Below, piece after piece: positions 3,444 to 62,406 of a DNA stretch of 64,000 nucleotides; position 1 is the stretch's first letter, and the number at the start of each line of letters is the position of its first letter. The translations under genes and the position numbers were made by a program. The notes beneath the pieces are model-generated. The model saw only the letters and a program-made list of their open reading frames with translations. It was not told where the DNA came from and searched no databases. Source of the stretch: Candidatus Heimdallarchaeum aukensis. GTDB lineage: Archaea > Asgardarchaeota > Heimdallarchaeia > Heimdallarchaeales > Heimdallarchaeaceae. Location of the stretch: the NCBI GenBank assembly GCA_021513695.1, contig CP084166.1, positions 256,001 through 320,000 on the forward strand, in the 5' to 3' direction.

Positions 3444-3581
3444 CTTTCTCTTTTCTCCTTCTTTCCTCTTTTTTTTGTTTCTTCTTCTCTTTTTTATTCT
3501 ACTTTTTTCCCTATAAAAACCCCTCTCCTTCCTCTCCTCTCCTTTCTTTTTTCTCTCTACATTTTCCTCAATAATTGTAAA

Positions 3582-4082: not shown

Positions 4083-4168
4083 TCAATAAATCAATCTCAC
4101 TAATTATTTATAAATGAAGAAAAAAAGATTTCTCATATTTATAAAGAAATTCAATTATAAATCATTGA

Positions 4169-4801: not shown

Positions 4802-4857
4802 CTATAGTCATTTTTTCTATTTCTTCTTTCTTTATAAAGTAATATTAAGATAAGATT

Positions 4858-5595: not shown

Positions 5596-5678
5596 CTTTT
5601 TAGTAACTCAAGTTTGCTTTCTTTTCTTCTCTAAGATTAAATACTCAAAACTCTATTATTTATTAACTCTGAAAAAGA

Positions 5679-9219: not shown

Positions 9220-9227
9220 CTTTTTAC

Positions 9228-9479
9228 TCACTGGAATTTCTTGTTTAGATACTTCTTTAATTTCGTGAATGTTTTACTTTCTTTATTTTCTCTATTCCAC
9301 TTTTGTATGATGTAGTCTCTAAACTCTTTAGGTAACCAATCAAATCTACTGTAAACTAGGCAATAGCCCTTTAACCTTTCATATTCACTAGTTTTTTCGA
9401 GTAGTTTAAGTGCTCTTAACAGATATCCTTTTGGTTGGTTTTCTAGAATATAAACTACTTTTTTTTCTGCTGTTACCAT
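9228..9479 (-). CDS. small hypothetical protein
   Basis: 83-aa ORF antiparallel between two + genes. Basic, no motifs. Confidence 0.2.
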   Translation of the reverse strand: MVTAEKKVVYILENQPKGYLLRALKLLEKTSEYERLKGYCLVYSRFDWLPKEFRDYIIQKWNRENKESKTFTKLKKYLNKKFQ

Positions 9480-9577
9480 CTGAAAGACTAATTCAGAATT
9501 TTGTTTATAAACTTAGGATTATTTACAAAAATTTCCCCCTTTTTAAATAAATGAGTCAATTACTTTTTTAGATTGAA

Positions 9578-20400: not shown

Positions 20401-20791
20401 AAATAAATCAGATTATCTTCTAACATTACTTTTACTAGATTCAGAGAATAGAAGTATTTCTAATGCAGAAACAACGATATTCTTCTTAGATACTACTCAT
20501 CTGGTTTTAGAAAATCGTACTCTCTTCACTGATGCAAATGGTTATTTGTATTTAGATGTCAGTACATTTCCTGAAAAAACAACAATGATAAGGATTGTTT
20601 TTGATGGAGATGTGGTATATGAGGATACGATGATCGATATAGAAGTTGAAGATATTGTCAAAACTTATACCCAGAATGTAAAAATCCCGAAAATGAATAT
20701 GATACATATGCTAATCTCTATTCCTGTAAGCATTATAGGATTAATAGTATATTCAAAAAAAGACATTTTCAAGAATCTTAAAAAACATTAG
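14426..20791 (+). CDS. giant cell-surface protein (2121 aa): signal peptide, more than 15 tandem Ig-like/CarboxypepD_reg-like beta-sandwich domains, C-terminal TM anchor
   Basis: N-terminal MKKKLKFMLIMFLVLPLSLNHVLA signal. Recurrent domain-core motifs TDENGYAKT, TNDTGYGKITL, TNSQGYFSM, TDTEGCFYLSY, TNESGIAQLNI, TDSNGFGSYYW, TDVYGQARVEL, TNSSGVAVIAL, TDENGVFSSV, TNSDGEFIFVIP, TDANGYLYLDV, spaced about 90..110 aa apart. C-terminal hydrophobic helix MIHMLISIPVSIIGLIVY followed by KK. Confidence 0.7.
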   Translation: MKKKLKFMLIMFLVLPLSLNHVLAENVIELLNLQSRYPINYKSKDSDVISIKSTIGKDNELSIRKKENSVISSLNNEFVSPYSPKLSYGLYKTFTQISSVPESINKGENISVTSSTKFDLGTLYPVDQGTIYWYDLNCLEEDLGVSTSFVESSKIAISFNLTSPSNYMGVYFDISNLADLTGDVLNVYLTSDLENYSTDYLAKSELSFKYYNSQAGVSGFYAIYDSPTTTQVDNSLLAGETYFVVLEGDSSLRIETSLDSEEYDDNKVYVFSGGSWGLEQGIDAKIRIFSGQKITEKTISSSSNGETTITYQSSQSSFKYHTLVAFYYDTSGMYDLSSDSSDFKVIDSTIPEYISLNSPSIAEYTDYIELKAYVENYYHQELENQTVYFYYSEDNSSWIEIGSSISDSTGVAKINFLISKASGYYYFKAVTQNLETFNYTETTKEQVIIETPLVQTIYGNLSGSDTLETFSLKVQVHDNDNTPISGVMVFFYVEGKTFVYDITDENGYAKTHSYSVNWAVGYYNNKYWVNIDLDTNLYSFPDTQYGDIEVQKSNLQIYSLDNNTINVWINDSYFSFEVKDPENDSVANIEFESILYDPYFDEYVSLGYAFTNDTGYGKITLPAYFKEPGKYTLIIRISDPNYNVIEENLQLELYASSSIIECNLPSSIEYTYNSSLLIEGNVTDINGKPLANANITVKITDPSISSNWVLYIYTTETNSQGYFSMNLTLDVEVDQELVITIHVENYYGSNGEISYYATSSQEYNLLCVRRDAEILNVQDFITQNQETIIISGLLIDSGEPLSGKEIRIIIQEENYYIITDTEGCFYLSYQVNFGTNVNFTVVFGSDNHYNVVNLTRTIFSSPISLNIEIEDVICNPNTLIYLSSYVYSDLGTTPENVQVEFYWYDEQWILLGIVFTNESGIAQLNITSPDKVGEFSWKAIVVQTEDWLESSSNLKLFQIGYHTSISMEAPIQGQYGNEIRINFTVTDQFGQPIGVNINFYIDGLLLSEISTDSNGFGSYYWTIDLSSGNYSFKAVVLNQSIYISSSCIQEFEIIKADVYIQSSDLIMTCNETKTMEFYVYSINGEITNLSLNISLSNGYSTVLTSNSSGYAVWSIPILPSGVYTVNVTFNGDDKYNTISVSYSLVVNKIETNVILFAEDSFYSENYKICGYVENSEGQGIEGIAVNLLINETFTLSTTTLSDGSYLFLVLLLPDYYNIEVQIEGNDYINPSSRSTSVYIYKLSSSLNGKIEFINDTMIITANLTSSSEPVEGQIIYFYVNNSLVGTNLTDVYGQARVELLNITPSLYSVNIEYKGNEIYQESSTNIQAEKDKEQTEIKVSVEEGVYSQSPTNIFISLSSNGEALSNQYIKLNFDNDSYLALTNSSGVAVIALDINYLPGNYNGEIVYEGSEIYSSNAVSVNITIYKSNCVFSSLEIQYLETLTILNGKIEGKYPLENESIFIEINGSSYNVLQTDENGVFSSVLILNPGEYTLTAIFLGNDCYLPVNQSIYFSISKIASGLEIYDFSKTLEYGKEELVEFKLYSYNNESGIEGQISVMINGSLITIVETSSDGLGSFLLPNDLSVGTYILQISFAGDDLYYSTSESITIKVKYKLEISITESDLKNYGIEASISGILNIPLEGISLTLNITNLNYSNVVKTNSDGEFIFVIPSNIPSGNMTIVLFIEKTETILDTNYSFETTRGYGEYSVLFTNLEFDINSTESITGKISYNGDYSSSGKIYIKINDTIVLTQEFNELGEFNIAHSIFDLLPGDYNIKFYFEFDNENFRSQELTIKIEILKLELNLEVTTSSSEIQVYDVLSLNISANYPLDKDRIKLLVNNTEYSNNEFEIIEYENYLTANIVIELAGNINITVIFEENDFFYRSEKSLIIQVLKRDVGFEYNRDTFYYNSSIPLIIELISFKNETDIEFTVLLGERAETGVKTISFILTNIFIGDYQVYMLFEGNSYYNSFNSSFVIHIIPQPTKIVFKENKSDYLLTLLLLDSENRSISNAETTIFFLDTTHLVLENRTLFTDANGYLYLDVSTFPEKTTMIRIVFDGDVVYEDTMIDIEVEDIVKTYTQNVKIPKMNMIHMLISIPVSIIGLIVYSKKDIFKNLKKH

Positions 20792-27281: not shown

Positions 27282-29393
27282 ATGAATGAAATAGAGTTAA
27301 GTTCTGAAAAACTAGAGGATTTTCAACAGAGGTGTATGGAAACTTTTTTGAAAAAAGAAAATTGCCTTATTTCTTCTCCTTCTTCTACAGGAAAAACATT
27401 TCTAGTTAAAGAATATATTAAAAATTACATTATAGAAAACTACTCAACTATTCTACGATCTCCTAAAAAAATGAAAATAGTGCTACTGTTTCCTTATAAG
27501 GCGATTGCTATACAAGAATTTAACTCACTAGTCGATTTTGCAGAAAAAAAGATGATCAAGATATTCTTATCTGTTGGAGGAGTAAAGTTAAACAAAGAAA
27601 CAGTAATGGAAGCAAATATTATTGTTGGAACATTTGAAAAGTTTTACTTCATTTTGAATCTATTCCCTGAAATTCAAAAGAACTTGAAAATATTGGTAAT
27701 AGATGAATTTCACTTTTTAGGTTATAATAGGGGAAAAGTGATAGAAAGTATATTATTAAAAGTTAAGGAAAACAAAAATACACAGATTATTCTTTTATCC
27801 TCATCAATCGGGAATCCTGAGGAAATAGCAAGTTGGTTAGGCTTTAAACTTTTGCAATATAATAAACGCTTAGTACCGTTGGAATTGAATATAAAAAAAA
27901 TTGAAAAATCTCTTATACAAGAAATATTTTCAATCAGCAAAGCTAACTTACCTGCTATTATATTTCAAAACTCAAGATCTAAAGTAGAAAAATTAGCTCT
28001 AGAATTAGCAAAAAAAAGAAAAGATGTATTGATAAAGAATTTCGAAGAGTTTTTCGTAAATTCTCCTAACCTTATTTCAATAATGGAAGAAGTTTATTTC
28101 CCTGATAAACTAAAAGAAGCAATTTCAAAGAGAGTGGCTTATCATCATGCAGGTTTAAGTGATATAGTTAGAGTATTTGTAGAACAATTATTTCTTTCTG
28201 GAGAGATTGATTACTTGATTTCTACTTCCACTCTGTCAGCTGGAATAAATCTTCCAGCTAAAATGTCAATTTTTGTTATAGAAAGAAAACAATCTGAAGT
28301 TGATAATAATTTAATTTTTCAAATTCTGGGGAGAGCAGGAAGATTTGAGTTTCAAGATAAAGGAATAGGAATTCTATTAATAAGACCAGCTTATTTGAAA
28401 GAATATAGCGACAAACTTTTTGACCAAAGAGGAAAACCTATTTACAGTAGTTTAAAAAGCCAATTTTTTGACTATGATTTTTTGATCAAATATTTTCTGG
28501 TAGAAATCGCATTTTCTAAGGAACCTGTTTCAGTAAGGATAGAAGATTTATTAAAAAAAATCGAGAATTCACTATGGTTTTATAGTAACAAAGAAATATT
28601 CTTAGTATTTAACTCTAAAGATGTTCATTATGCACTTTTTTCTCAAGCCTACTCAAGTTTGGATTATGAAGAGATAGTTGATTATTATGAGAAATTAGAT
28701 GAAGCTTTTGGTATAAAGCCTTCTAATTTACAACTCGTTTCTAAGCAAGAAAAAGGCAAAGGTAACTTCTCTTTTATAATTTTAGAGAATGAAAAAAAAT
28801 ACAAAGTAATTATGAATTTAGAAAGAAGACAATGTTCTTGTCAGTCAAAGTACAGCAATTATCTTTGTAGACATCAGCGTTTTTTGATTAAGATGTATCC
28901 TTTCATGAAAGAATATTGGTTAAATAAATATGGAATAATCGATTGGCTGATCGATAATGGTTTTTTAGTTAGAAGCAAAGGAATGAAGGTTAATCCTACT
29001 TTATTGGGAAAAATTTCTGCAAAATTTTTTATTCACCCTTATTCTTTTCTTCATTTTCTTCATTTATTAATTATCTATCCTAACATTAACTTTTCCTCTT
29101 TTTTTACTAAAGTTGTTCTATTCGATGAACAAATAAAGAGAGATATTAAGTCAAATGAACTAACAAATATACAAGCTTTGCAAATATTTCAACTATTAGT
29201 AAAACAAGAACCATTAACAATATGCTCAAAATACAATATTTCAGACAGTCTATTAGAAAATTGGCAAGAAATATATACCAAGTACAAGAGTTTATTTTTT
29301 GAATTAAAGAAACTTATGGGAAAAAATCTAGCAAAAGGGAACTTTACAAATAATTTCCTCACGAAAAATGAAGTTGAAGAAACAATTCGTTAA
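27282..29393 (+). CDS. Ski2/Hel308-like SF2 DExH helicase with an embedded SWIM-type zinc finger
   Basis: 703 aa. Motif I SSPSSTGKT, Ia PYKAIAIQ, II VIDEFHFLG, III LLSSSIG, V TSTLSAGINLPA (compare Hel308 TPTLAAGVNLPA), VI ILGRAGRFEF. SWIM signature CSCQSKYSNYLCRH (CxCx8CxH) near residue 520. Confidence 0.7.
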   Translation: MNEIELSSEKLEDFQQRCMETFLKKENCLISSPSSTGKTFLVKEYIKNYIIENYSTILRSPKKMKIVLLFPYKAIAIQEFNSLVDFAEKKMIKIFLSVGGVKLNKETVMEANIIVGTFEKFYFILNLFPEIQKNLKILVIDEFHFLGYNRGKVIESILLKVKENKNTQIILLSSSIGNPEEIASWLGFKLLQYNKRLVPLELNIKKIEKSLIQEIFSISKANLPAIIFQNSRSKVEKLALELAKKRKDVLIKNFEEFFVNSPNLISIMEEVYFPDKLKEAISKRVAYHHAGLSDIVRVFVEQLFLSGEIDYLISTSTLSAGINLPAKMSIFVIERKQSEVDNNLIFQILGRAGRFEFQDKGIGILLIRPAYLKEYSDKLFDQRGKPIYSSLKSQFFDYDFLIKYFLVEIAFSKEPVSVRIEDLLKKIENSLWFYSNKEIFLVFNSKDVHYALFSQAYSSLDYEEIVDYYEKLDEAFGIKPSNLQLVSKQEKGKGNFSFIILENEKKYKVIMNLERRQCSCQSKYSNYLCRHQRFLIKMYPFMKEYWLNKYGIIDWLIDNGFLVRSKGMKVNPTLLGKISAKFFIHPYSFLHFLHLLIIYPNINFSSFFTKVVLFDEQIKRDIKSNELTNIQALQIFQLLVKQEPLTICSKYNISDSLLENWQEIYTKYKSLFFELKKLMGKNLAKGNFTNNFLTKNEVEETIR

Positions 29394-31473: not shown

Positions 31474-34400
31474 ATGACGTCATCTGTCATGTCAACAACT
31501 GTCCTAAAATCATTATTGTTAATTCTAGTTCTTGCTCCAACAATAGTAATGATAAATAATAATGAAAATAATTTATTTAACCTACAAAATGAAGAAAATA
31601 GTAAGAATGAGATTTATTCATTAAACAACAGTAATGAGAATTTTATTGACATATCGAATAAAAAAAATAATGATAATATTCTAGAAAACGACGTAAGAGC
31701 TAGTAATAAGGATAGAATACTTTTATCTTCTCTTCCAGATAGCGCTAATTGGGTAGAAAAAAATGAGTCATTTACTGGTAGATTTTATCAATCATTAAGT
31801 GATTTAGATGAAGATAAAATCCCAGAGCTTATAACTCTTTCTGATACTAATGGGCAAATTCAAGATATTGGAGAACCTGGTTATACAAAATTTTTGGAAT
31901 ATAACGAAACAACAGGAACTTTTTCAAATGAACTATTGTCTATTAGTACAGCGGGCCCTACAATTTATTATCCTGTTGAAGCTTATGCTGATAATGCTGT
32001 ATATTTGCTCGAAAAGACTTTTTCAGCAGATAATTCTGATCATATTTTTGTTTGGAAAAAATGGAATGGAACTGATATTATCAACGTTTCTTCAAATATC
32101 TATATTAAAAATGATGGTTTATATGATTATGACAGTTATGATTTTGATTTAGATGGAAATGTAGATTTAGTTTGTAATTGGGGTTATTATTCAGGTGTAT
32201 GGACAAGATTAGAGTTAGAGAATGGGCTTTTTTCTTCAACTGATTATTCATTTTATAACGGGGGCAGATCTATTTTTGTAGAAGATTTGGATAACGATGG
32301 TAATCCAAATGTAGCTGTACTATATGCTGTTGATAAAATAAATATTTATAATTATAATCCGAGTATAAATGATTTCCAATTTCAACAACAAATTACTGGT
32401 ATTAGTTCATTAAAAGTAATGTATCCTTGGGATTATGACCATAATGGCTATACTGATATTATTGTTGTTTCTCATGAGACTGGAGTTGTTATTTATTCAT
32501 ATGAATGGGATAGTTCTTCTTCTTCTTATGTTCAAAAACTATCATATACCATTCCTGAAGCGACAGATAGTCAATGGACTGGTGTTCCTAGGTATTGTGA
32601 TCTTCTTGGAGATGGAGAAATTACAATGGTTTTTGATATTGTCCGTAATTCACGTTCTGAAATAGGTTTTATCACTTATGAAAATAATAACTTTGCTTTT
32701 AATTCTATTTATAATCATACAGATAGTTCGAAAATTTATTTTACATCTGCTCAAATTGATAATGATCCAGAAAGAGAAATTCTAGTAAATTATGAAAAGA
32801 ATGTAGATGAATTCTATACGAAAATATTAGATTTGGAAGCGTTTAATGAGGGTCGGTATTTTGAAACTTTTGACTCTGATGTTTTTCTTTCTAATCCAAA
32901 TATGAAATATTCTTGGAGCAGGAGTAAAGATAATGTAGTCGTATCTAATGGATCTTTAAAAATTTTAGCTGATGAAACAAATGATGATTATGCAAAACTA
33001 CAACTTTTTTCTGGAACTAAATCAATACAAATCAGAGCTAGAGTAACTTTAAATGGTGACAAATTCAACTATCCTGAAATAATAATTAAAAATGACAATA
33101 ATGAAATAGTAGCCAATTTGACATTTAGTCAAATAGATGGATGGCAAACACCACAGTTAAGCTATTTAAGTGATTACAGAGGACCAACAATAAAAGGCGT
33201 TTGGTATGATTTAATGATCAACTTTGGTTTTAATTCTCTTACATTTTATACAAAGAAGCCTTATCAAGATTATTGGCGCTATATTGCCAGATTTAATATT
33301 AATGGAAATTTAAACGAATTAATTTTTTATCAACGCAATAATGCAGAAATAGAAATGGATTCTATTGACATTTTTTATAGTTATGACAGTGATAATGATG
33401 GGTTAAGTGATGATAGCGAAACTCTAATCTATCAAACTGATCCTCTAGATCCTGATACTGATGACGATGCTTATACAGATGGAGATGAAATAGAAACAGG
33501 AACAGACCCACTTGATCCTTTAAGTTATCCCAAATCTTACTCCTCAATTTTTTCAGAAAATTTTGAAACAGGAATATTAGATGAAAATAATTGGAGTTTG
33601 TATTCTTCCAATAATGTTGGAGAATGGACTATTGTTAAATATCAAGGAAACTATTGGGTACAGCATCTTTATTCAGGTAGTGTGATAGGACATACTGATC
33701 CTAACATACTTGTTTCATCTCCTCTAAATTTTGGTGACAATTTTACTATTTCATATGTAGTTAGACCTCTCACTTATCAATACGATGAGGTTGGAATTTT
33801 CTTTCTCTGTCCTAATGGTACAGGTTTCAGACTAGGAACTTTTAATGTATATCATGATTTTATAAGAATAGGTGCTTCTAGCTATTATGATTTTGCTTTC
33901 ACAGCTGATTTAGATAAGACTTATTATATGAAAGTTACTTATGTAGATGATACAGTTACCGTTTTTTGTAATGACTCTCAAATTGCACAGGTAAATAATA
34001 TAGACCTCCCATCTGAAGGATCATTAGGATTAAGGAGTAGAGGATATTATGGTCAAGCTTCTCATGCTCTTTATGACAATATTACAATACATAGTACAGC
34101 TTTGTTAAATGAGACCTTTGATTTTGATATCTTTGACACTTATTCAAATTGGATAAGAGATACTACTTCTTTTACTGTTGATACAACCAATAGTTGGTTA
34201 CATAAAGGTACAACAGGTAGTTATAATCATATTGCAAAATATAATAAAACAATACAATTTCCATTCACTATAAATGTAAGAGGAAGATTGGTAAGTGGAG
34301 GATATGATTATACATTTCCTGGATTATATCTCTGTTATCCAAATGGTTCGTCAATGTCAATTGTTTTTAATGGAGGAGGTACAGGAGGAGACTATTGGAC

Positions 34401-37400
34401 ATTTTGGGGTCGCAGAGATTCGGACTATGGTCCTCAAGCAGAAAATGTATGGTGGAATATTAAAGTTCTTTTGGATAATGGAACTCAATTTCTCTACTCC
34501 AAAAGTGACACTGATAGTAGTTGGATTTTAATTGCTAAAACAAATCTTTTATTTGAAAGTAATCATATTTATGTAGGTTTTAGTAGTCCTTGGGACGCTG
34601 TTTTTGACATAGATTATATTGAGATAATTTCGAGGAGTACAAATCCAATTGATACTGATTCTGATGGATTACTAGATGAGGATGAGATAAATATTTACGG
34701 TACTAACCCTTCTAATTCTGATACTGATTCTGATGGTATGCCTGACGGTTGGGAGGTTACTAACAGTTTGGACCCCTTAACTGATGATTCTTCTTTAGAC
34801 GCTGATTCTGATGGTTTAACTAATTTAGAAGAATACTCTTCTGGTACTGACCCCAATAATAGTGATTCTGATAATGATGGTTTAACTGATGGTTCAGAGG
34901 TTAATACTTACAATACTGACCCCAATGATTCTGATACTGATTCTGATGGTATGCCTGACGGTTGGGAAGTAAACTACAGTTTGGACCCCTTAACTGATGA
35001 TTCTTCTTTAGACGCTGATTCTGACAGTTTAACTAATTTAGAAGAGTATCAAAATAACACTGACCCCAATAATAGTGATTCTGATAATGATGGTTTAACT
35101 GATGGTTCAGAGGTTAATACTTACAATACTGACCCCAATAATTCTGATACTGATTCTGATGGTATGCCTGATGGTTGGGAAGTAAACTACAGTTTGGACC
35201 CCTTAACTGATGATTCTTCTTTAGACCCCGATTCTGACAGTTTAACTAATTTAGAAGAGTATCAAAATAACACTGACCCCAATAATAGTGATTCTGATAA
35301 TGATGATTTAACTGATGGTTCAGAGGTTAATACTTACAATACTGACCCCAATAATTCTGATACTGATTCTGATGGTATGCCTGATGGTTGGGAAGTAAAC
35401 TACAGTTTGGACCCCTTAACTGATGATTCTTCTTTAGACGCTGATTCTGATGGTTTAACTAATTTAGAAGAATACTCTTCTGGTACTAACCCTTCTAATT
35501 CTGATACTGATTCTGATGGTATGCCTGATGGTTGGGAAGTAAACTACAGTTTGGACCCCTTAACTGATGATTCTTCTTTAGACCCCGATTCTGACAGTTT
35601 AACTAATTTAGAAGAGTATCAAAATAACACTGACCCCAATAATAGTGATTCTGATAATGATGATTTAACTGATGGTTCAGAGGTTAATACTTACAATACT
35701 GACCCCAATAATTCTGATACTGATTCTGATGGTATGCCTGATGGTTGGGAAGTAAACTACAGTTTGGACCCCTTAACTGATGATTCTTCTTTAGACGCTG
35801 ATTCTGACAGTTTAACTAATTTAGAAGAATACTCTTCTGGTACTAACCCTTCTAATTCTGATACTGATTCTGATGGTATGCCTGATGGTTGGGAGGTTAC
35901 TAACAGTTTGGACCCCTTAACTGATGATTCTTCTTTAGACGCTGATTCTGATGGTTTAACTAATTTAGAAGAATACTCTTCTGGTACTGACCCCAATAAT
36001 AGTGATTCTGATTCTGATGGTATGCCTGACGGTTGGGAAGTAAACTACAGTTTGGACCCCTTAACTGATGATTCTTCTTTAGACGCTGATTCTGATGGTT
36101 TAACTAATTTAGAAGAGTATCAAAATAACACTGACCCCAATAATAGTGATTCTGATAATGATGGTTTAACTGATGGTTCAGAGGTTAATACTTACAATAC
36201 TGACCCCAATGATTCTGATACTGATTCTGATGGTATGCCTGACGGTTGGGAAGTAAACTACAGTTTGGACCCCTTAACTGATGATTCTTCTTTAGACGCT
36301 GATTCTGACAGTTTAACTAATTTAGAAGAGTATCAAAATAACACTGACCCCAATAATTCTGATTCTGATAATGATGGTTTAACTGATGGTTCAGAGGTTA
36401 ATACTTACGGTACTGACCCTAATAATTCTGATTCTGATAATGATGGTTTAACTGATGGTCAAGAGGTTAATACTTACGGTACTGACCCTAATAATTCTGA
36501 TACTGATGGAGACAGTATGCCTGATGATTGGGAAGCAAATAATAATTTAGATCCTTTAATTGATGATTCTTCTTTTGATGCTGATTCTGACGGTTTAACA
36601 AATTTAGAAGAATACTCTTCTGGTACTGACCCCAATAATAGTGATTCTGATAATGATGGTTTAACTGATGGTTCAGAGGTTAATACTTACTCTACAGATC
36701 CATTAGATTCTGACACCGACTCTGATGGTATGCTTGATGGTTGGGAGGTTACTAACAGTTTGGACCCCTTAACTGATGATTCTTCTTTAGACGCTGATTC
36801 TGACAGTTTAACTAATTTAGAAGAGTATCAAAATAACACTGACCCCAATAATAGTGATTCTGATAATGATGGTTTAACTGATGGTTCAGAGGTTAATACT
36901 TACAATACTGACCCCAATGATTCTGATTCTGATAATGATGGTATGCCTGACGGTTGGGAGGTTACTAACAGTTTGGACCCCTTAACTGATGATTCTTCTT
37001 TAGACGCTGATTCTGATGGTTTAACTAATTTAGAAGAATATTCTTCTGGTACTGGCCCTACTAATTCTGACACTGATTCTGATGGTATGCCTGACGGTTG
37101 GGAGGTTACTAACAGTTTGGACCCCTTAACTGATGATTCTTCTTTAGACACTGATTCTGATGGTTTAACTAATTTAGAAGAATACTCTTCTGGTACTGAC
37201 CCCAATAATAGTGATTCTGATTCTGATGGTATGCCTGACGGTTGGGAGGTTACTAACAGTTTGGACCCCTTAACTGATGATTCTTCTTTAGACGCTGATT
37301 CTGACAGTTTAACTAATTTAGAAGAATACTCTTCTGGTACTGACCCTAATGATTCTGACACTGATTCCGATGGCATACCTGATGGTTCAGAGGTTAATAA

Positions 37401-39414
37401 TTACTCCACTGATCCTTCTAATAGTGACACTGATTTTGATGGTTTAACTGATGGTTCAGAGGTTCTCTATGGTACTGATCCTTCTAATAATGACACCGAT
37501 TCTGATGGTTTAACTGATGGTTCAGAGGTTAATACTTACTCTACTGACCCTTTGGCTTCTGACACTGATTTTGATGGTATACCTGATGGTTGGGAAGTTA
37601 CTAACGGTTTAGACCCGTTATCTGATGATTCTTCTTTCGACCCCGATAATGACGGTTTAACTAATTTAGAAGAATACTCTTCTGGTACTGACCCCAATGA
37701 TTCTGACACTGATTCCGATGGCATACCTGACGGTTGGGAGGTTACTAACAGTTTAGACCCATTATCTGATGATTCTTCTTTCGACCCCGATAATGACGGT
37801 TTAACTAATTTAGAAGAATACTCTTCTGGTACTGACCCTAATGATAGTGACACTGATTTTGATGGTTTAACTGATGGTTCAGAGGTTAATATTTACTCCA
37901 CTGACCCTAATAATAGTGACACCGATTCTGATGATATGCCTGATGGGTGGGAAGTCAGCAACAATTTGAACCCATTGAAAGACGATTCTGCTTGGGATAT
38001 TGATTCTGATGGTTTAACTAATTTAGAAGAATACACTTCTGGTACTGACCCTAATGATTCTGACACTGACTCTGATGGTATGTCTGACGGTTGGGAAGTA
38101 AACTACAGTTTGAATCCGTTATCCGATGATTCCTCTTTGGATGCTGATTCTGATGGTTTAACTAATTTAGAAGAATACTCTTCTGGTACTGACCCTAATG
38201 ATTCTGACACTGATAATGACGGTTTAACAGATTATGAAGAAATAGCGATTTATGGTACAAAACCAAATAAAAACGACACCGATGGAGATGGTGTTCCTGA
38301 TGGTGATGAAATACAAAATGGTTCAAACCCAAACAAACCTTCTTACTTACAGTTTCTGATATTATATTCAATAAAAAGGTATACTTTTGAACTGATATTT
38401 GGAATAATTGCAATAATTGGTATCATTGTAGCTACAATATTCTTAAAGAAAAAGAGAAAAACCCAAAAAATCTTAGCATCAAAAAATAGATCAAGACAAA
38501 GTACAATAAAAAGAGCAAAGAAAAAGAATTTATTGTTATCTTTCAGTGATAATTTGGAGATTATAGAACAGGAATGGAAACAGATTAATGATGAGAAATA
38601 TTCTGATAAAACATTGTTTAATACTGATTATTCTAATAAAATAAAAGAAACTTTTGCTAAATTAATAGAGACTACAATAGAATTTAACTATTACTTTACC
38701 AAAGGGACAAAATATTTGTCAAATGTTGAATGGTTAAATATAAAGAAAAGAATAAACAATTTACTTGACAAATTTAGAGACTTTTTACTACAAGAATTAG
38801 AGAAAGTTGATTTTACTAAAAAATTCTCGATAATAAAAAATGAAATAGAAAAGGTAGTTGTTGAAAATTTGCGAAACTTTGACGAAAAAGAGTTATTAAA
38901 ACCATTTAATATATTAAATACTCTAGCTACTATAAAAAATGAAATAGACAGGACTAAAGAGTTCATCGACGAATTTACTTTTTCTAAATTGACCTCTTAC
39001 TGGGGTAATTTGTCTAATCAAATTACAAATATTATTGTTGAAATAGAAAGACAAAAAGAGGAAACAGAAAGAATTATACAAGAAACAAAGGAAATAATGG
39101 AAAACGAGAAATTGAATCAAGAACGATTAGAAATTCTAAACAAAGTAGTTTCTATCTATACACAAATTTCATTATCTAAACTTTCTTCGTTGCTTAAGTT
39201 ACCTTCGATATCTGCTCTAACTTATTGGTTATCAACTCAAAATTTAGATATTGATTATATAATTGTCGACGATGAAATAATCTTTGAAAAACAAAAAGGA
39301 GAAAAAAATGAAAATGATGTTGATTATGATAACGAAGTAACTAATGCGATAGACTCTCTATTAAAACAATTTGATGAATGGGCAAAAAAGGATGAAGGAA
39401 AAAAAATAGATTAA
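31474..39414 (+). CDS. giant surface adhesin-like protein (2646 aa): signal/anchor, FG-GAP-like propeller repeats, LamG-like jelly-roll domains, about 50 thrombospondin-type-3-like Ca-binding repeats, TM helix, 330-aa cytoplasmic coiled-coil tail
   Basis: N-terminal hydrophobic LLLILVLAPTIVMI. DxDxDG loops DFDLDGNVDLV, DLDNDGNPNVAV, DYDHNGYTDIIVV, DLLGDGEITMVF (FG-GAP-like). Repeating DTDSDGMPDGWEV / DADSDGLTNLEEY / DSDNDGLTDGSEV units match DxDxDGxxDxxE. TM ELIFGIIAIIGIIVATIF followed by KKKRK and a charged helical tail. Confidence 0.75.
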   Translation: MTSSVMSTTVLKSLLLILVLAPTIVMINNNENNLFNLQNEENSKNEIYSLNNSNENFIDISNKKNNDNILENDVRASNKDRILLSSLPDSANWVEKNESFTGRFYQSLSDLDEDKIPELITLSDTNGQIQDIGEPGYTKFLEYNETTGTFSNELLSISTAGPTIYYPVEAYADNAVYLLEKTFSADNSDHIFVWKKWNGTDIINVSSNIYIKNDGLYDYDSYDFDLDGNVDLVCNWGYYSGVWTRLELENGLFSSTDYSFYNGGRSIFVEDLDNDGNPNVAVLYAVDKINIYNYNPSINDFQFQQQITGISSLKVMYPWDYDHNGYTDIIVVSHETGVVIYSYEWDSSSSSYVQKLSYTIPEATDSQWTGVPRYCDLLGDGEITMVFDIVRNSRSEIGFITYENNNFAFNSIYNHTDSSKIYFTSAQIDNDPEREILVNYEKNVDEFYTKILDLEAFNEGRYFETFDSDVFLSNPNMKYSWSRSKDNVVVSNGSLKILADETNDDYAKLQLFSGTKSIQIRARVTLNGDKFNYPEIIIKNDNNEIVANLTFSQIDGWQTPQLSYLSDYRGPTIKGVWYDLMINFGFNSLTFYTKKPYQDYWRYIARFNINGNLNELIFYQRNNAEIEMDSIDIFYSYDSDNDGLSDDSETLIYQTDPLDPDTDDDAYTDGDEIETGTDPLDPLSYPKSYSSIFSENFETGILDENNWSLYSSNNVGEWTIVKYQGNYWVQHLYSGSVIGHTDPNILVSSPLNFGDNFTISYVVRPLTYQYDEVGIFFLCPNGTGFRLGTFNVYHDFIRIGASSYYDFAFTADLDKTYYMKVTYVDDTVTVFCNDSQIAQVNNIDLPSEGSLGLRSRGYYGQASHALYDNITIHSTALLNETFDFDIFDTYSNWIRDTTSFTVDTTNSWLHKGTTGSYNHIAKYNKTIQFPFTINVRGRLVSGGYDYTFPGLYLCYPNGSSMSIVFNGGGTGGDYWTFWGRRDSDYGPQAENVWWNIKVLLDNGTQFLYSKSDTDSSWILIAKTNLLFESNHIYVGFSSPWDAVFDIDYIEIISRSTNPIDTDSDGLLDEDEINIYGTNPSNSDTDSDGMPDGWEVTNSLDPLTDDSSLDADSDGLTNLEEYSSGTDPNNSDSDNDGLTDGSEVNTYNTDPNDSDTDSDGMPDGWEVNYSLDPLTDDSSLDADSDSLTNLEEYQNNTDPNNSDSDNDGLTDGSEVNTYNTDPNNSDTDSDGMPDGWEVNYSLDPLTDDSSLDPDSDSLTNLEEYQNNTDPNNSDSDNDDLTDGSEVNTYNTDPNNSDTDSDGMPDGWEVNYSLDPLTDDSSLDADSDGLTNLEEYSSGTNPSNSDTDSDGMPDGWEVNYSLDPLTDDSSLDPDSDSLTNLEEYQNNTDPNNSDSDNDDLTDGSEVNTYNTDPNNSDTDSDGMPDGWEVNYSLDPLTDDSSLDADSDSLTNLEEYSSGTNPSNSDTDSDGMPDGWEVTNSLDPLTDDSSLDADSDGLTNLEEYSSGTDPNNSDSDSDGMPDGWEVNYSLDPLTDDSSLDADSDGLTNLEEYQNNTDPNNSDSDNDGLTDGSEVNTYNTDPNDSDTDSDGMPDGWEVNYSLDPLTDDSSLDADSDSLTNLEEYQNNTDPNNSDSDNDGLTDGSEVNTYGTDPNNSDSDNDGLTDGQEVNTYGTDPNNSDTDGDSMPDDWEANNNLDPLIDDSSFDADSDGLTNLEEYSSGTDPNNSDSDNDGLTDGSEVNTYSTDPLDSDTDSDGMLDGWEVTNSLDPLTDDSSLDADSDSLTNLEEYQNNTDPNNSDSDNDGLTDGSEVNTYNTDPNDSDSDNDGMPDGWEVTNSLDPLTDDSSLDADSDGLTNLEEYSSGTGPTNSDTDSDGMPDGWEVTNSLDPLTDDSSLDTDSDGLTNLEEYSSGTDPNNSDSDSDGMPDGWEVTNSLDPLTDDSSLDADSDSLTNLEEYSSGTDPNDSDTDSDGIPDGSEVNNYSTDPSNSDTDFDGLTDGSEVLYGTDPSNNDTDSDGLTDGSEVNTYSTDPLASDTDFDGIPDGWEVTNGLDPLSDDSSFDPDNDGLTNLEEYSSGTDPNDSDTDSDGIPDGWEVTNSLDPLSDDSSFDPDNDGLTNLEEYSSGTDPNDSDTDFDGLTDGSEVNIYSTDPNNSDTDSDDMPDGWEVSNNLNPLKDDSAWDIDSDGLTNLEEYTSGTDPNDSDTDSDGMSDGWEVNYSLNPLSDDSSLDADSDGLTNLEEYSSGTDPNDSDTDNDGLTDYEEIAIYGTKPNKNDTDGDGVPDGDEIQNGSNPNKPSYLQFLILYSIKRYTFELIFGIIAIIGIIVATIFLKKKRKTQKILASKNRSRQSTIKRAKKKNLLLSFSDNLEIIEQEWKQINDEKYSDKTLFNTDYSNKIKETFAKLIETTIEFNYYFTKGTKYLSNVEWLNIKKRINNLLDKFRDFLLQELEKVDFTKKFSIIKNEIEKVVVENLRNFDEKELLKPFNILNTLATIKNEIDRTKEFIDEFTFSKLTSYWGNLSNQITNIIVEIERQKEETERIIQETKEIMENEKLNQERLEILNKVVSIYTQISLSKLSSLLKLPSISALTYWLSTQNLDIDYIIVDDEIIFEKQKGEKNENDVDYDNEVTNAIDSLLKQFDEWAKKDEGKKID
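34640..38330 (+). repeat. intragenic near-identical tandem nucleotide repeat array (213-nt and 144-nt unit variants) encoding the TSP3-like repeats
   Basis: Unit starts at 34933, 35146 and 35359 are exactly 213 nt apart with long perfectly identical stretches. The shorter 144-nt variants lack the DSDNDGLTDGSEV half-unit. The array extends about 3.7 kb. Confidence 0.85.
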
Positions 39415-54566: not shown

Positions 54567-54720
54567 AGAAATGAAACTGATGAATTTAAAAAAAAATCTT
54601 TAATTATTTTGTTATAATGGACATAAAAATAAGTCCTAATTTCAATTACAAATTATTTAAGTCTCCAATTTATGCTGATACTATCAAAAAATATATTTAT
54701 TAAAAATAACTAGTTATCTC

Positions 54721-55779
54721 ATGAAACTTAATAAACTAAATAAAAGAGCAGTTTCACCAGTTATTGCAGTTGTTTTATTAATCGCTTTAGTAACTGCAGC
54801 TGTAGCTATAGTATTTTTTGTAGTTTTGCCAATGGTTCAGGGAGATCCTCAACTAGTAGTCTTAAAAATCACTCCAAGTGATACAGATGGAGACAAAAGA
54901 GTTGATACACTGATTATAGATTACCAAAATCTTGGTTCAGGAGAAGCAGTTATTTCAAGTATAATTTTGTACAAGTATAACAATTCAATGGAATGGACAG
55001 TAGATAAAACACTTCCTTATTCTCTAAAATCTAACAAGAAAGACGTAATAACTTTAACTACTTCCGACCCTACCAAACAATTAAAATATCCTGATATCGC
55101 TTATCTTGAAACTACTTACAGCGATGGAATTCTTTTAAGAACAGATATAACAATAGATTCTAGTTTCTCTCCTGTTACTTTAATCTATTCTGAAGACTTC
55201 AACTCATACTCTGACGGATACTCTCCAACTGAATGGACATATTTCCTTGTAGCACAACATAGTCCTACAGGAACACATACTATTAATGATTGGCAAGTAC
55301 AAAGTGGTTCACTCAAAGTAATGGCAAATGATTGTACCTATATTGTTCTTAATTCAAGTACAGGTTATTATTATACTAACGTGAATATGAGCTTTGACCT
55401 TAAAGCAAATGATAACGACGAACTTGGAATCATCTTTAGGTGGCAAATGGACGGAGGAAAAGAAAAATACTACTTAGTAAGCTATACCAGAGATCATGGT
55501 TTATCTGATCACTTTGGAGGAGATAATCCTACAGATGGTTATGTAACTTTATCTTATGTTGAAGACAACACCATTACTGTAATTGATAGTGCTTCATTTA
55601 GCAGAAATGACAACAGTTGGTACAATTATCGATTAGTTACAGATGGTACATCGATAAAGGTATATATCAATGATGTACTCTATATTGACACTACAAGTTC
55701 TCTTTTATCTGGAGGATATATTGGTCTTGTATCAGCTGCAATGAATGGAGCAGAATTTGATAACATTCTTGTCTGGTAA
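54721..55779 (+). CDS. archaeal type IV pilin-like protein (class III signal peptide) with a C-terminal LamG/concanavalin-like jelly-roll domain
   Basis: N-terminus MKLNKLNKRAVSPVIAVVLLIALVTAAVAIVFFVV matches the archaeal prepilin/preflagellin signal ([KR][GA]-VSPVIA hydrophobic helix). The C-terminal 200 aa (WQVQSGSLKV...ELGIIFRWQ...YYLVSY...YNYRLVTDGTSIKVYINDVLY...GLVSAAMNGAEFDNILVW) resemble the LamG/DUF1080-type domains of the giant protein at 31474. Confidence 0.7.
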   Translation: MKLNKLNKRAVSPVIAVVLLIALVTAAVAIVFFVVLPMVQGDPQLVVLKITPSDTDGDKRVDTLIIDYQNLGSGEAVISSIILYKYNNSMEWTVDKTLPYSLKSNKKDVITLTTSDPTKQLKYPDIAYLETTYSDGILLRTDITIDSSFSPVTLIYSEDFNSYSDGYSPTEWTYFLVAQHSPTGTHTINDWQVQSGSLKVMANDCTYIVLNSSTGYYYTNVNMSFDLKANDNDELGIIFRWQMDGGKEKYYLVSYTRDHGLSDHFGGDNPTDGYVTLSYVEDNTITVIDSASFSRNDNSWYNYRLVTDGTSIKVYINDVLYIDTTSSLLSGGYIGLVSAAMNGAEFDNILVW

Positions 55780-55845
55780 ATTTCTTTTTCTATTTTTCTT
55801 TTTTTTATTTTCACACAAAAAATTAAAGAAAAAAAAGATAAATAA

Positions 55846-56991
55846 TTAATATACTCCCAATTGTTCATCTTTTTTTAGTATTCTTCTAGGGTTCCTAATT
55901 CCGTCTCTATTGCTGTAAATACCTTTTCCTTTTATTAATTCTCCATAGTCCCCATATTGAATTAAAGCTGGTATCACACATTCGGGGCTTACTCTTTGGC
56001 TAACTACTGTTCCTTCTTCACCATAGCTCCCTCGTTGACTAATGTCATTTTCATCTTTAGTTATGAACATATTCATTCTTTCCCAAGGATAATAATCTAA
56101 ATCATAATTATCATTGGGTAATTCTGTTTGCATTGTTGGTCCAAAAAGTGATTGTCCGTAGTATCCTGCAAGAGGTAATTGTAATTCTTCTTTAACTAGT
56201 CTATGTGTCTCCTGAGACATTGGAACACCCCCATGAATAATTGCTTTAAGATTTCCTTGCTCTTTCATTTTTTTGATTATAGGATACATTTTTTCAATAA
56301 TTACACCAGTTGTAATAACAATTCCTATGTTACTGAATTCTTGTTCTATCAAATTCTGTACTTGAAAATTCATATTTTCTAGGTATAGCTTCGCTGCATT
56401 TGGATCTTTCATCATTGCGACTTTTATAAATCGAGGATCAAGGTCTATGTGATAAATCATTGATTCCATATCTCTATCCCAGTACTTTATTACCCACTTT
56501 CCAGCCATATGTGGGCCTGTAGGAAGCATTGATAAAACATTCAACCCTCTTGGGATTTTGTGTGCATCAATCATTTGTAAAGCTGCTTGACTAGCAACAG
56601 GAAAAGTAGGTGTTTCAATATCGTATGGGTCTAATTCTCCTGGGAGAAGTGTCATATCTTCTAGAAAGACAGTTTTTTTTGGCTTGCCTGTTGTTCCTCC
56701 AGTTTCAACTAAAGGAGTAGATCTATATCTATTCTTCTTTGCCCACTGAAAAGCCCATTTAGTAGTTGTATGGTAAATAGACTTTCTAAACTCATCAGGG
56801 TTTACATTGCCAAAAAACTCTGCAAGTTCAACCCAGTTTCTAACATCACCTTTTTTTACATTTTTCTCCTTTGCTAGATTAATCATCATAGGAGAGCCAT
56901 ATTGTTCATCAATAGCGATATTTACGCATTCTTCAATAAAATCACTTATTTGATTTTTACTTGCTGTTTTACTTTTGGTCTCTGTAATCAT
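55846..56991 (-). CDS. adenylate-forming enzyme, phenylacetate-CoA ligase / coenzyme F390 synthetase-like
   Basis: 381 aa. VETGGTTGKPKKTVF matches the AMP-binding P-loop (SGTTGKP) of PaaK-like ligases. Confidence 0.45.
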   Translation of the reverse strand: MITETKSKTASKNQISDFIEECVNIAIDEQYGSPMMINLAKEKNVKKGDVRNWVELAEFFGNVNPDEFRKSIYHTTTKWAFQWAKKNRYRSTPLVETGGTTGKPKKTVFLEDMTLLPGELDPYDIETPTFPVASQAALQMIDAHKIPRGLNVLSMLPTGPHMAGKWVIKYWDRDMESMIYHIDLDPRFIKVAMMKDPNAAKLYLENMNFQVQNLIEQEFSNIGIVITTGVIIEKMYPIIKKMKEQGNLKAIIHGGVPMSQETHRLVKEELQLPLAGYYGQSLFGPTMQTELPNDNYDLDYYPWERMNMFITKDENDISQRGSYGEEGTVVSQRVSPECVIPALIQYGDYGELIKGKGIYSNRDGIRNPRRILKKDEQLGVY

Positions 56992-57232
56992 TTTTTCACC
57001 AATTATTTATACCATATTTCATTTATAAAGAAGGAAATTTTTTAGAAATCACTGCAATTTTTCTGCAATTTTTTCCATAATAAATTAATTAAATAAAAGT
57101 AAACAATACTCACGAAAAGGAGAATAAAACTCTCTATTGGGTCAAACATCTTTGAGTTTTATTCTTTTTTCTTTCTTTTCTTATCAAAATATGTATCAAA
57201 CAGACATATATAAACCCAAAGAAAATAAATTA

Positions 57233-60277: not shown

Positions 60278-61660
60278 ATGGATAAAAATAAGCGAACGCT
60301 ATTTGGGTTAATGCTTTCTAGTTTTATAGTCAATTTAGGTTTTGGAGCAATAATGCCTTTTCTCTCAATATATTCTTCATTGTTTTTCTATCCTATAGAT
60401 TTAGGATTCATAATTATTCGTGAAGTTACTCAAATAGGTTTGCTTACTTCGGCAATGATGATATCTAGAGCTTTTCTTGCTCCATTTTATGGGAGAATGA
60501 GTGATAAAGAGGGAAGAAAAGCAATAATAGTTGTAGGACTTGGATTGTATGTTATTCTGACCTTTGGTTTTGGTTTGGCTACAAGTTTTTACGCTCTATT
60601 TGTTGTAAGATTTGTGCAAGGTATTGCTTCTGCTCTCGTTTGGCCTGTAGCTGAATCTGCAGTTGTAGATGTTTCAAAAGAGGAAGAAAGAGGAAGAAAT
60701 TTAGGATGGTTTATGATGAGTATGACTTTAGGTTGGTCTTTAGGACCATTTCTAAGTACTGTGCTTATTTGGTTTGCTAAATTATTTGTATCAAGTCAAA
60801 TTAAAGCTTTTCAATTCACTTTTTTTATGATGGGAGGATTATCTTTTATTGGTTTTATGATTTTTAATATACTAGTAATTGATCCCAAAACAAATAAAGC
60901 ACGAATGTCCGCTAAAGAAATTTGGACAGCAGTAGTTTTAGTAATAAAGACTACTTTTAATATATCTAATTTAGGAATACCTAGTTTTCTAAAACCTTCA
61001 TTCTGGAAAGAAAGAACTGTAAGCTTAAGAGCAGTTTTTATTATGGCTTTTTCTAATGGTTTCGGATTTGCAATGGTTTTTCCTATCTTTTCTTTATTTT
61101 TCTATCAATTTTATAATTTATCAGAAGAATTTATTGGCACAATTTTTGGAATAGTAGGATTGATAGGTGTGGTATTCAATCCTATTGGTGGATGGGTAAG
61201 TGATAGAACAAATAAAAAAGTGGTCGTGCTTTTCACTGGGTTGATTTCTGGAATTCTTATGGGTTTTGCAGGTTTTCAATTTTCAATAATGTTGATTATA
61301 GGATTGTTTACAGCAAGACAAATAGTTCAACAAATGAATATGCCTTCATTCAGAGCTTTGCAAGCAGATCTAGTAGAACCTGAAAAAAGAGGATTAGAAT
61401 TTGGTAATGTTCAAATGTTTTTTAATACTGGTTCAATTCTTGGACCTATTTTAGGCGGGATTCTCTATGATAAATTTAGTGAGCAAGAGTTTACTTTTAT
61501 GGGTCTACAAGCTTTTGGTGTTGAATATCTGTTTTTAATTACTTCTTCATTAGCAATTATTGCTACAATAGTGTTAATTATTTTTGTCAAAAAAAGAGAT
61601 TTTGTAGTAAACAAATTGAAAGAAAATAAGGAAGAATATAGCTTTATTGCTAAAGAATAA
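60278..61660 (+). CDS. major facilitator superfamily transporter
   Basis: 460 aa, about 12 TM helices. The loop 2-3 motif GRMSDKEGRKAIIVVGL matches the MFS G-x-L-a-D-r-x-G-r-k-x-x-l signature. Confidence 0.7.
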   Translation: MDKNKRTLFGLMLSSFIVNLGFGAIMPFLSIYSSLFFYPIDLGFIIIREVTQIGLLTSAMMISRAFLAPFYGRMSDKEGRKAIIVVGLGLYVILTFGFGLATSFYALFVVRFVQGIASALVWPVAESAVVDVSKEEERGRNLGWFMMSMTLGWSLGPFLSTVLIWFAKLFVSSQIKAFQFTFFMMGGLSFIGFMIFNILVIDPKTNKARMSAKEIWTAVVLVIKTTFNISNLGIPSFLKPSFWKERTVSLRAVFIMAFSNGFGFAMVFPIFSLFFYQFYNLSEEFIGTIFGIVGLIGVVFNPIGGWVSDRTNKKVVVLFTGLISGILMGFAGFQFSIMLIIGLFTARQIVQQMNMPSFRALQADLVEPEKRGLEFGNVQMFFNTGSILGPILGGILYDKFSEQEFTFMGLQAFGVEYLFLITSSLAIIATIVLIIFVKKRDFVVNKLKENKEEYSFIAKE

Positions 61661-61668
61661 AATAGTGA

Positions 61669-62406
61669 TTATTTTTGAATTATCTGTTTTTCTTTAACAT
61701 CAATTTCAATTAATGAATTATTTTTTAGTAGTTTTGCTTCACCCAGTGAGGGAAGATAGCAGGAACTAATTATAATTGTTGAATCAGAATTATATAGTTT
61801 CATTGTGTAGTACAAAGGATATTTTTTGAAAAAAACACCTATCCAAACTTTTTCATTGTTAGCTAAAATGAAATTTGCACCACTATAATCCCACTCTTTT
61901 ATTAAATTATAAACTGCTTCACTTGATAAAGAACCATTTTTTTCTATTAGTTCCAGTAATTTAAAGAAATATTTTTCAGAGTCTGTGGTTCCTTTAGGGG
62001 TAAATCTGTTTTTATCAACTTTTATTTCTGTTTTTATTGTTCCATTATGCATGAAAACCCACGTCTTTCCTAAAAATTCTTGATCAAATGGGTGATTATT
62101 TTTGATATCAATTTCAATTCCTGGAGAAGCTTTTCTTGCATGTATTAGAGCTATTTCTCCTCTATTTACTTCTGAGTAAATATCAACTGAAGTGGAAAAA
62201 ATAGGTTCAAGGAAGTGAAAAGTTGAAAAACTACCGTTTTTGAGAAAAGAATAACCAAATCCATCAGGATGAGGAAATGTTTGATCCTCATTTCTCTCGT
62301 GAATATCTAGTTTAGGTCCTTTTAGATAATCTTCACAAGAAAGAATAAACTCCGAAATAGCATTCTTTTCTAAATTTTTTCCTATTTTTACGAATAATCT
62401 ACACAT
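61669..62406 (-). CDS. class II (Ntn) glutamine amidotransferase-like protein, YafJ type
   Basis: 245 aa beginning MCRLF. Cys2 is the N-terminal nucleophile after Met removal, as in YafJ/EgtC-type GATase II (MCRLLG). Confidence 0.45.
   Translation of the reverse strand: MCRLFVKIGKNLEKNAISEFILSCEDYLKGPKLDIHERNEDQTFPHPDGFGYSFLKNGSFSTFHFLEPIFSTSVDIYSEVNRGEIALIHARKASPGIEIDIKNNHPFDQEFLGKTWVFMHNGTIKTEIKVDKNRFTPKGTTDSEKYFFKLLELIEKNGSLSSEAVYNLIKEWDYSGANFILANNEKVWIGVFFKKYPLYYTMKLYNSDSTIIISSCYLPSLGEAKLLKNNSLIEIDVKEKQIIQK

Follow-up and report, generated by a model that had tools for sequence, protein, structure and literature searches.

The stretch of DNA analyzed here, referred to as the window, comprises 64,000 nucleotides of Candidatus Heimdallarchaeum aukensis (assembly GCA_021513695.1, contig CP084166.1, positions 256,001 to 320,000 of the forward strand) and has a GC content of about 28-30%. 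At 54721..55779 (+) it carries an open reading frame (ORF) whose limits were borne out exactly, with no alternative start codon upstream of 54721, and whose 352-amino-acid (aa) product, with the N-terminus MKLNKLNKRAVSPVIAVVLLIALVTAAVAIV, combines a predicted archaeal type IV pilin with a C-terminal lectin-like jelly roll. The product is 100% identical to a Ca. H. aukensis protein that bears in NCBI only the name “DUF1080 domain-containing protein”, and a regular-expression scan of the six frames of the window found no other ORF with a class III-like signal. The mature protein (VSPVIA...) has a mass of 38 kDa and a pI of 4.3. The gene and its immediate borders contain the following features:

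54686..54706 (+), TATA-like A/T-rich stretch, 15-35 nt upstream of the ATG, read from the sequence
54721..54750 (+), class III signal peptide leader, aa 1-10 (MKLNKLNKRA), with four positive charges, Arg at -2 and Ala at -1
54751..54843 (+), mature hydrophobic alpha-helix, aa 11-41 (VSPVIAVVLLIALVTAAVAIVFFVVLPMVQG), the predicted pilin polymerization and membrane-anchor helix, free of charge and helical in an AlphaFold2 (AF2) model
54853..55149 (+), pilin globular beta-sandwich, aa 45-143, from the AF2 model and alignment to Natrinema PilA2 and short pilins
55150..55185 (+), inter-module linker, aa 144-155 (TIDSSFSPVTLI), from AF2 secondary structure, a drop in the predicted local distance difference test score (pLDDT) and the end point of short pilins
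55186..55779 (+), CBM66/DUF1080-like jelly roll of concanavalin A (ConA) type, aa 156-352 plus the stop codon, from PF06439, Foldseek and profile comparison with the PDB
55780..55812 (+), oligo-T tract immediately past the stop codon, read from the sequence

The pilin module and the jelly roll

A preliminary description of this DNA had predicted a class III signal peptide at the N-terminus, and this prediction is well supported: the motif K[RK]AVSPVIA..LLIAL is invariant across 10 homologs, the Pilin_N profile (PF07790) matches all seven full-length family members at E<=0.01 (best E=7.5e-9; 27.8-32.4 bits in relatives), and a profile of the family finds archaeal pilins of known structure. The cleavage site requires a correction of one residue, having been placed before Ala10; cleavage by a prepilin peptidase is expected after it (A10/V11, KRA/VSPVIA), since V11 aligns with the first residue of mature Ignicoccus Iho670. 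Positions 10-41 contain no Lys, Arg, Asp or Glu. Searched against the PDB, the family profile matches Natrinema PilA2 (8gi2, E=2.9e-5) through both helix and beta-sandwich at profile positions 9-112, as well as further filament-forming archaeal pilins (9myg, 8fj5, 8fk7, 8q30 and Iho670). The signal region of PilA2 reads ERAVSPVIG, and its segment ERAVSPVIGVILMVAITV corresponds to KRAVSPVIAVVLLIALVT in the window pilin. With PilA2, 9myg, 8fj5, 8fk7 and Iho670 (5kyh) the window protein has in common the [KR]AVSPVI(A/G) signature, the long hydrophobic helix and the beta-sandwich, whereas these filament pilins are 130-165 aa long (303 aa for Iho670) and have no lectin module in place of the 200-aa domain added here.

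In an AF2 model built from 7 sequences (mean pLDDT 80.9), residues 13-39 form a helix, 45-143 a beta-sandwich (pLDDT >90) and 156-351 a jelly roll. Short Heimdall pilins of 132-155 aa are collinear, end to end, with aa 1 to about 148 of the window protein; the helix is about 85-90% identical between the window protein and the short Heimdall pilins of 132-145 aa, and one of the short pilins clears the Pilin_N cut-off with 32.4 bits. Because the profile matches to the family and to the PDB, the modeled beta-sandwich and the collinear short pilins all point the same way, aa 1 to about 148 are predicted to constitute a whole archaeal type IV pilin and not a signal peptide alone.

The lectin/DUF1080 domain proposed for the C-terminal part was likewise recovered, with PF06439 (DUF1080, now “3-keto-disaccharide hydrolase”) scoring 38.2 bits against a cut-off of 26.8 over aa 185-349 (positions 26-184 of the 187 in the profile) and matching five of the seven family members. 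Foldseek against the PDB places at top rank the CBM66 of Bacillus subtilis levanase (4b1m, E=9e-9, target TM score 0.75-0.79, 20-21% identity), followed at E of about 1e-6 to 1e-5 by DUF1080 structures, the thrombospondin C-terminal domain, galectins, a legume-lectin domain of M. jannaschii and glycoside hydrolase (GH) family 16 enzymes; L-type lectins are likewise among the matches. At the level of sequence, the only PDB match of the module is to CBM66 and not to the DUF1080 enzymes (hmmsearch E=9e-6, 59 residues).

Residues conserved in the DUF1080 enzymes BT2/AL2 are E103, N134, E164, Q166, Y190, K245, Q273 and H275 (10.1101/2024.03.25.586180). The solved DUF1080 enzymes all end in IG[LMF]QDHGDDVWFRNI (IG[LMF]-Q-D-H-GDDVWFRNI); at this Q-x-H site the pilin family reads IGLVSAAMNGAEFDNI (IGL-V-S-A-AMNGAEFDNI) and CBM66 reads FGL-N-V-W. 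In this comparison, aligned by eye on the anchors G-x-I-G-L and F-x-N-I, the Q-x-H pair (Q273/H275 of BT2) occurs in none of the family members, the pilin having V-S-A instead. Since Q-x-H is missing here as it is from the non-catalytic CBM66, the C-terminal module likeliest binds carbohydrate and does not process it, and it is most likely a non-catalytic glycan-binding domain. In levanase SacC (4azz, 4b1l, 4b1m) the CBM66, which matches best in structure, accompanies a GH32 enzyme, whereas the module here is about 40 aa longer and follows a pilin. CBM66 binds the terminal fructose of levan (PMC12678895), a specificity that, judged by sequence, is not transferable to the pilin module at 20% identity.

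Family, neighborhood and filament machinery

Ten relatives of the window protein emerged from a word-based protein search and about a dozen full-length representatives from an exhaustive HMMER search, in which many further proteins match the pilin module only (profile positions 2-150) and continue into other C-termini. On this same pilin module, paralogs of about 600 and about 920-1030 aa carry C-termini assigned by Pfam to Big_13, CarboxypepD_reg/Big_1, SpaA and FlgD_ig. Scanning each GTDB species through a single genome yielded 61 loci, nearly all from Heimdallarchaeota with a few from Hod-, Kari- and Borrarchaeota, Bathyarchaeia and DPANN, in size classes of about 132-155, 370-382 (lectin), 592-613 and 920-1030 aa. 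The lectin-pilin family as delimited by these searches is small and essentially Heimdallarchaeial. The complete sister genome of Ca. H. endolithica encodes an 89%-identical ortholog (L010) together with a 603-aa Big_13 paralog (L030), and some database homologs are already annotated as type IV pilins. Genes with the pilin module and products of about 372-382 aa stand in tandem in some Heimdallarchaeota metagenome-assembled genomes (L014, 8762-9880 and 9983-11131; L048, 2487-3635 and 3798-4946), and the upstream L014 copy (8762-9880) has no Pfam match at E<=0.01.

The lectin-pilin gene occurs in two synteny groups across genomes, a Heimdallarchaeum-like clade A and a second clade B. Throughout clade A (5 genomes: the window, L010, L002, L008/L012 and L011) it is kept with a major facilitator superfamily (MFS) sugar transporter and a GATase_4 gene; in L008 and L011 the three genes adjoin one another on one strand, 76-90 bp apart, and GH2 and GH127 genes lie near the pilin gene in L002. 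Within clade B (4 genomes: L003, L009, L014 and L015) the pilin gene is found between purE/ubiquitin-like and pyrD, with a glycoside hydrolase inserted directly downstream of it in L009. The ubiquitin-like gene of clade B (77 aa, PF00240/Rad60-SLD) lies about 170-190 bp upstream (L003, 9600-9833; L004, 69-266; L009, 9582-9815), an adjacency that may be plain synteny. The corresponding neighborhood of the window includes:

54679..57232 (strand not applicable), 2.55-kb segment with the pilin gene and a convergent 381-aa gene, opposite in orientation to both its flanks when Ca. H. aukensis is compared with Ca. H. endolithica
60278..61660 (+), MFS sugar transporter (Sugar_tr), conserved clade A neighbor of the lectin-pilin gene
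61669..62406 (-), GATase_4 gene, the second conserved neighbor in clade A

The TATA-like stretch AAAAAATATATTTATTAAAAA may be an archaeal promoter, giving a monocistronic transcript that is leaderless or nearly so, and the oligo-T tract is a candidate archaeal transcription terminator common to the pilin gene and the convergent gene; with one element upstream and the other after the stop codon, the pilin gene looks monocistronic. As the TATA-like stretch lies within the inverted 2.55-kb segment, the pilin gene takes its own upstream element along. The convergent gene contains a GGTTGKPK motif and has no Pfam match. Identity between the window and L010 is 84% inside the segment and 81-84% in its flanks (blastn), and the ends of the inversion showed no convincing flanking inverted repeats, only weak A/T-rich matches. 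These matches are no evidence of a phase-variation switch, and the inversion looks like an evolutionary event rather than a switch.

At every locus examined, the pilin gene stands alone. A search for an assembly ATPase near the 61 pilin loci found one among the Heimdall loci at L060 only, a Heimdallarchaeote locus where a T2SSE ATPase (125.5 bits, PilB3-like C-terminus) is encoded 0.7-1.5 kb downstream of pilin-family genes. The L060 region (3300-6656) consists of pilin-like genes of 381 and 156 aa and then the ATPase gene, and the contig stops before any platform gene. Some of 80 ATPase-centered metagenome loci, which hold relatives of the L060 ATPase, encode short pilins with a family-like N-terminus. 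A recent preprint describes a minimal type IV filament (TFF) core in a few Heimdallarchaeia and Asgard pilins encoded as stand-alone genes (10.64898/2026.04.22.720090), a picture that the stand-alone loci and scarce machinery fit.

The 2646-aa protein and other features of the window

The preliminary description had also proposed that the jelly roll of the pilin recurs in a giant protein encoded at 31474..39414, so that the same binding module would be displayed on a pilus and on the giant as a coordinated attachment toolkit. The giant has 2646 aa and comprises a signal/transmembrane segment, an FG-GAP region, three beta domains (D1, aa 455-645; D2, aa 686-878; D3, aa 876-1055), about 1200 aa of TSP3 calcium-binding repeats, a transmembrane helix and a cytoplasmic coiled-coil tail of about 330 aa. 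The part of it that bears on the comparison is:

33529..34107 (+), giant domain D2 (aa 686-878), a comparator and not part of the same system, predicted remote homolog of the pilin lectin module

Similarity between the two proteins was visible only with a broad profile, and only in D2. BLASTP of the pilin against the giant gave chance-level results (best E=0.38, in a different region), and a hidden Markov model (HMM) of the pilin-family C-terminal domain, run against 121 window ORFs, left the giant undetected (E=1.2). D2 alone scores 16 bits against PF06439 (E=0.013), below the cut-off. Aligned to D2 with hhalign, a 14-sequence alignment of the pilin C-terminal domain gave a probability of 58.6%, and a 78-sequence profile of the non-catalytic DUF1080-like subgroup gave 95.8% (P=8e-9) over 63 columns at 22% identity (pilin 292-352, giant 808-876); this second profile also reached 15.3 bits (E=1e-4) against giant aa 808-874 in hmmsearch. 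The match is confined to the last third of D2, and D1 and D3, which are paralogs of each other, remained at the noise level of 1.5-5% probability against the pilin module. Among the motif pairs cited for the resemblance, YRLVTDGTSIKVYINDVLY / YMKVTYVDDTVTVFCNDSQI falls inside the aligned block and is by this alignment structurally equivalent, on a strand motif (G-x-[IL]-G-L-x-S...[FY]-D-N-I) common to the whole superfamily, and WQVQSGSLKV / WTIVKYQGNYWVQH was aligned by no method. The AF2 model of D2, from 2 sequences, has a pLDDT of 47 and is too poor for a structural verdict; its Foldseek matches (PL7 lyases, CBM66 at rank 5, galectins, botulinum Hc) are indicative of a ConA-like jelly roll only.

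A protein search with giant aa 455-1060 was swamped by TSP3 repeats and left P0011 and P0012 as usable matches, and a word-indexed search with giant aa 688-876 (33535-34101) returned nothing at E<=10, a negative with a blind spot, as even the 72%-identical P0011 was missed. The high-scoring giants P0131, P0134 and P0135 of the exhaustive search were rejected as support for a link between pilin and giant, being generic DUF1080 tandem arrays with nothing pilin-specific; P0134, which ends in a DUF1302 of outer-membrane type, is probably bacterial. DUF1080-like modules are very common in surface proteins (2484 matches, bacterial tandem arrays included). By sequence, the pilin module and D2 are distant cousins in a broad superfamily of surface modules and not the same module. 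The two genes lie 15 kb apart, with a helicase, an aldehyde dehydrogenase, a lactate permease, a geranylgeranyl reductase-like gene and ParA between them, and the conserved synteny of the pilin gene extends to the sugar transporter and GATase_4 and does not include the giant.

The lectin-like domain and TSP3 repeats of the giant are reminiscent of the thrombospondin C-terminal cassette, and short-read assemblies break within its repeats. N-glycosylation sequons are not enriched in the pilin (3 observed against a shuffle mean of 3.8); per 100 aa there are about 2.6 sequons in the large surface proteins 14426-20791 and 31474-38328, 0.9 in the pilin and 0-1.4 in cytoplasmic neighbors. The left end of the window holds mobile-element genes (1989-6792) for a TnpB/Cas12f-like protein (1989-3443, -), a sigma-70 region-4-like helix-turn-helix protein (3582-4082, -) and an rve/IS630-like transposase (5854-6792, +); local GC reaches 0.36 there, and a public short-read contig ends at about 6.77 kb. 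A co-directional block at 7411-31276 contains a RecA/Rad51-like gene (9578-10669), a DEAD/SWIM helicase (27282-29393), a gene for a 1051-aa protein without family and several orphans, along with a 2121-aa Big_1/Big_3_5/CarboxypepD_reg/A2M-like surface protein (14426-20791), and this block may be a mobile or defense island.

Proposed display of the jelly roll and alternative explanations

We think it probable that the product is an archaeal type IV pilin of two modules that displays its lectin module on a pilus or a short pseudopilus. In such a mechanism, the precursor would insert in the membrane, a PibD/FlaK-type prepilin peptidase would cut off MKLNKLNKRA, and a minimal type IV filament machine, with its genes in another part of the genome, would extract the mature protein, whose helix would build it into the pilus or pseudopilus. 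A position as a minor or tip subunit would be most likely because there would hardly be room for a bulky 200-aa appendage on each subunit. The exposed lectin module would then bind carbohydrate, candidates being a polysaccharide or oligosaccharide substrate, a biofilm matrix and the surface of a partner cell; an MFS sugar transporter that stays linked to the gene in one clade, and glycoside hydrolases at two loci, tilt this choice slightly toward glycan capture for feeding over pure adhesion.

The argument on subunit position follows that made for Streptococcus sanguinis PilC (PMC9934059). This minor pilin of the filament tip binds glycans by a ConA-like lectin module, whose bulk has been proposed to force the protein into a tip or minor-subunit position. 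In both proteins a class III signal and a pilin moiety precede a C-terminal module of the ConA-like lectin/glucanase superfamily. However, PilC is bacterial and the resemblance is one of analogy, with no detectable homology; PilC is encoded inside a pil locus with its machinery and needs PilA, whereas the archaeal gene stands alone; and the pilin moiety of PilC is unusually short, whereas the archaeal one is complete and has a Pilin_N-type beta-sandwich. The window protein thus has the signal, pilin and grafted module of a modular type IV pilin of the PilB/PilC type but not the encoding in a pilus locus.

A number of observations weigh against assembly into a pilus and against the sugar connection. 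Scored on its own, the window protein remains just below the cut-offs of Pilin_N (20.5 bits, cut-off 25.2) and of TIGR02537 in NCBIfam (19.5 bits, cut-off 20). The 64 kb of the window contain no T2SSE ATPase, T2SSF platform protein or prepilin peptidase, nor does any such machinery occur within 10 kb of the orthologs (L002, L003, L008, L009 and L010-L015), and 0 of the 80 ATPase-centered metagenome loci have a DUF1080-type pilin. A motif scan of the complete Ca. H. endolithica genome returned the ortholog and the 603-aa paralog only, with no short candidate for a major pilin bearing this motif. The linkage to sugar genes is absent from clade B, so that in clade A it is perhaps inherited synteny, and MFS transporters need no binding proteins. 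Finally, TFF systems are reported to be rare in Asgard archaea (10.64898/2026.04.22.720090).

Much of this would also suit a membrane-anchored surface lectin that never enters a long pilus, in which the class III signal would serve only for export, processing and anchoring by the helix, alone or in a pseudopilus raft, while the carbohydrate-binding module captured glycans for the neighboring sugar-uptake and hydrolase genes. The model for such an arrangement is the bindosome of Sulfolobales, whose components GlcS, AraS and TreS also have a class III signal and a binding domain behind a hydrophobic helix, are encoded with transporters and have a proposed role in sugar scavenging; they differ in having an ABC-type solute-binding fold and an ATP-binding cassette (ABC) transporter, whereas the jelly roll here follows a full pilin domain and the neighboring transporter belongs to the MFS. 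Like the bindosome genes, many predicted class III-signal binding proteins of archaea co-localize with transporters and not with TFF loci (10.64898/2026.04.22.720090), a pattern of co-encoding with uptake genes that holds for the lectin-pilin in clade A (5 genomes) and not in clade B (4 genomes). The invariably stand-alone gene, away from TFF machinery, the MFS sugar transporter beside it in 5 genomes with glycoside hydrolase genes near in 2, a best structural match to the binding module of a polysaccharide hydrolase, and the failure of the motif scan to find a matching short pilin in the complete sister genome all speak for this explanation. Nevertheless, a complete pilin globular domain behind a helix nearly identical to that of short Heimdall pilins is hard to explain without co-assembly, the transporter is not a binding-protein-dependent ABC system and clade B has no sugar context. 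The bindosome itself, moreover, requires a TFF ATPase/platform pair and thereby overlaps with the pilus explanation. We regard the surface lectin as a serious contender of clearly lower likelihood. A catalytic C-terminal domain, acting as a surface 3-keto-glycoside lyase/hydratase or GH16-like glycanase on a pilin-type anchor, is improbable. Its appeal lies in the naming of PF06439, whose cut-off is passed, for enzymes (BT2157; AL2/BT2), in Foldseek matches to DUF1080 enzymes and GH16 laminarinases at E of about 1e-5 and in the hydrolases near two loci, but every family member lacks the enzyme Q-x-H, which is V-S-A in the pilin, sequence-level PDB matches are to the non-catalytic CBM66 only, Foldseek puts CBM66 three orders of magnitude ahead of any enzyme, and a partner oxidoreductase making 3-keto sugars is not among the neighbors. 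Least probable of all, and in our view very doubtful, is the attachment toolkit shared with the giant. Both proteins are predicted to be surface exposed and D2 is a remote homolog by hhalign, with a sub-threshold PF06439 score and ConA-like fold matches, but 22% identity over 63 columns places the relation at superfamily level among extremely common modules, BLASTP and the family HMM are blank, D1 and D3 are unrelated to the pilin module, and the distance, the unrelated intervening genes, the synteny and the missing window machinery do not favor a coordinated system.

Heimdallarchaeia are the archaea closest to eukaryotes, and Asgard archaea are studied for their contacts with partners and substrates, while their surface filaments are poorly known. 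Our literature search turned up no account of this protein or of any lectin-pilin in Asgard archaea, and the genome paper makes no mention of pili, pilins or lectins (PMC8813620). Modular pilins and class III-signal binding proteins are already published concepts and nothing is overturned here; the pilus-displayed lectin that we favor is a credible but unsurprising surface glycan-binding subunit. The protein and its paralogs point to a small family of modular pilins in Heimdallarchaeia, and the member with a carbohydrate-binding module carries, in the reference genome, the mistaken annotation of a plain DUF1080 protein. If expressed and assembled, this member would offer a testable handle on Asgard surface glycan recognition, with a soluble 200-aa domain and a defined cleavage site, and would extend the concepts of the modular pilin and the functionalized TFF from Firmicutes and Sulfolobales to an Asgard lineage. 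A bolder and distinctly speculative proposal is that one conserved pilin module, the KRAVSPVIA helix with its beta-sandwich, may serve Heimdallarchaeia as a general scaffold on which CBM66-like lectin, Ig-like and CarboxypepD_reg-like modules are displayed interchangeably, the lectin version being the binding arm of a glycan-scavenging unit resembling a bindosome or polysaccharide utilization locus, together with the adjacent MFS transporter and glycoside hydrolases. If true, this would represent a carbohydrate-foraging surface apparatus new to Asgard archaea, and a minimal TFF core with genes elsewhere might drive it.

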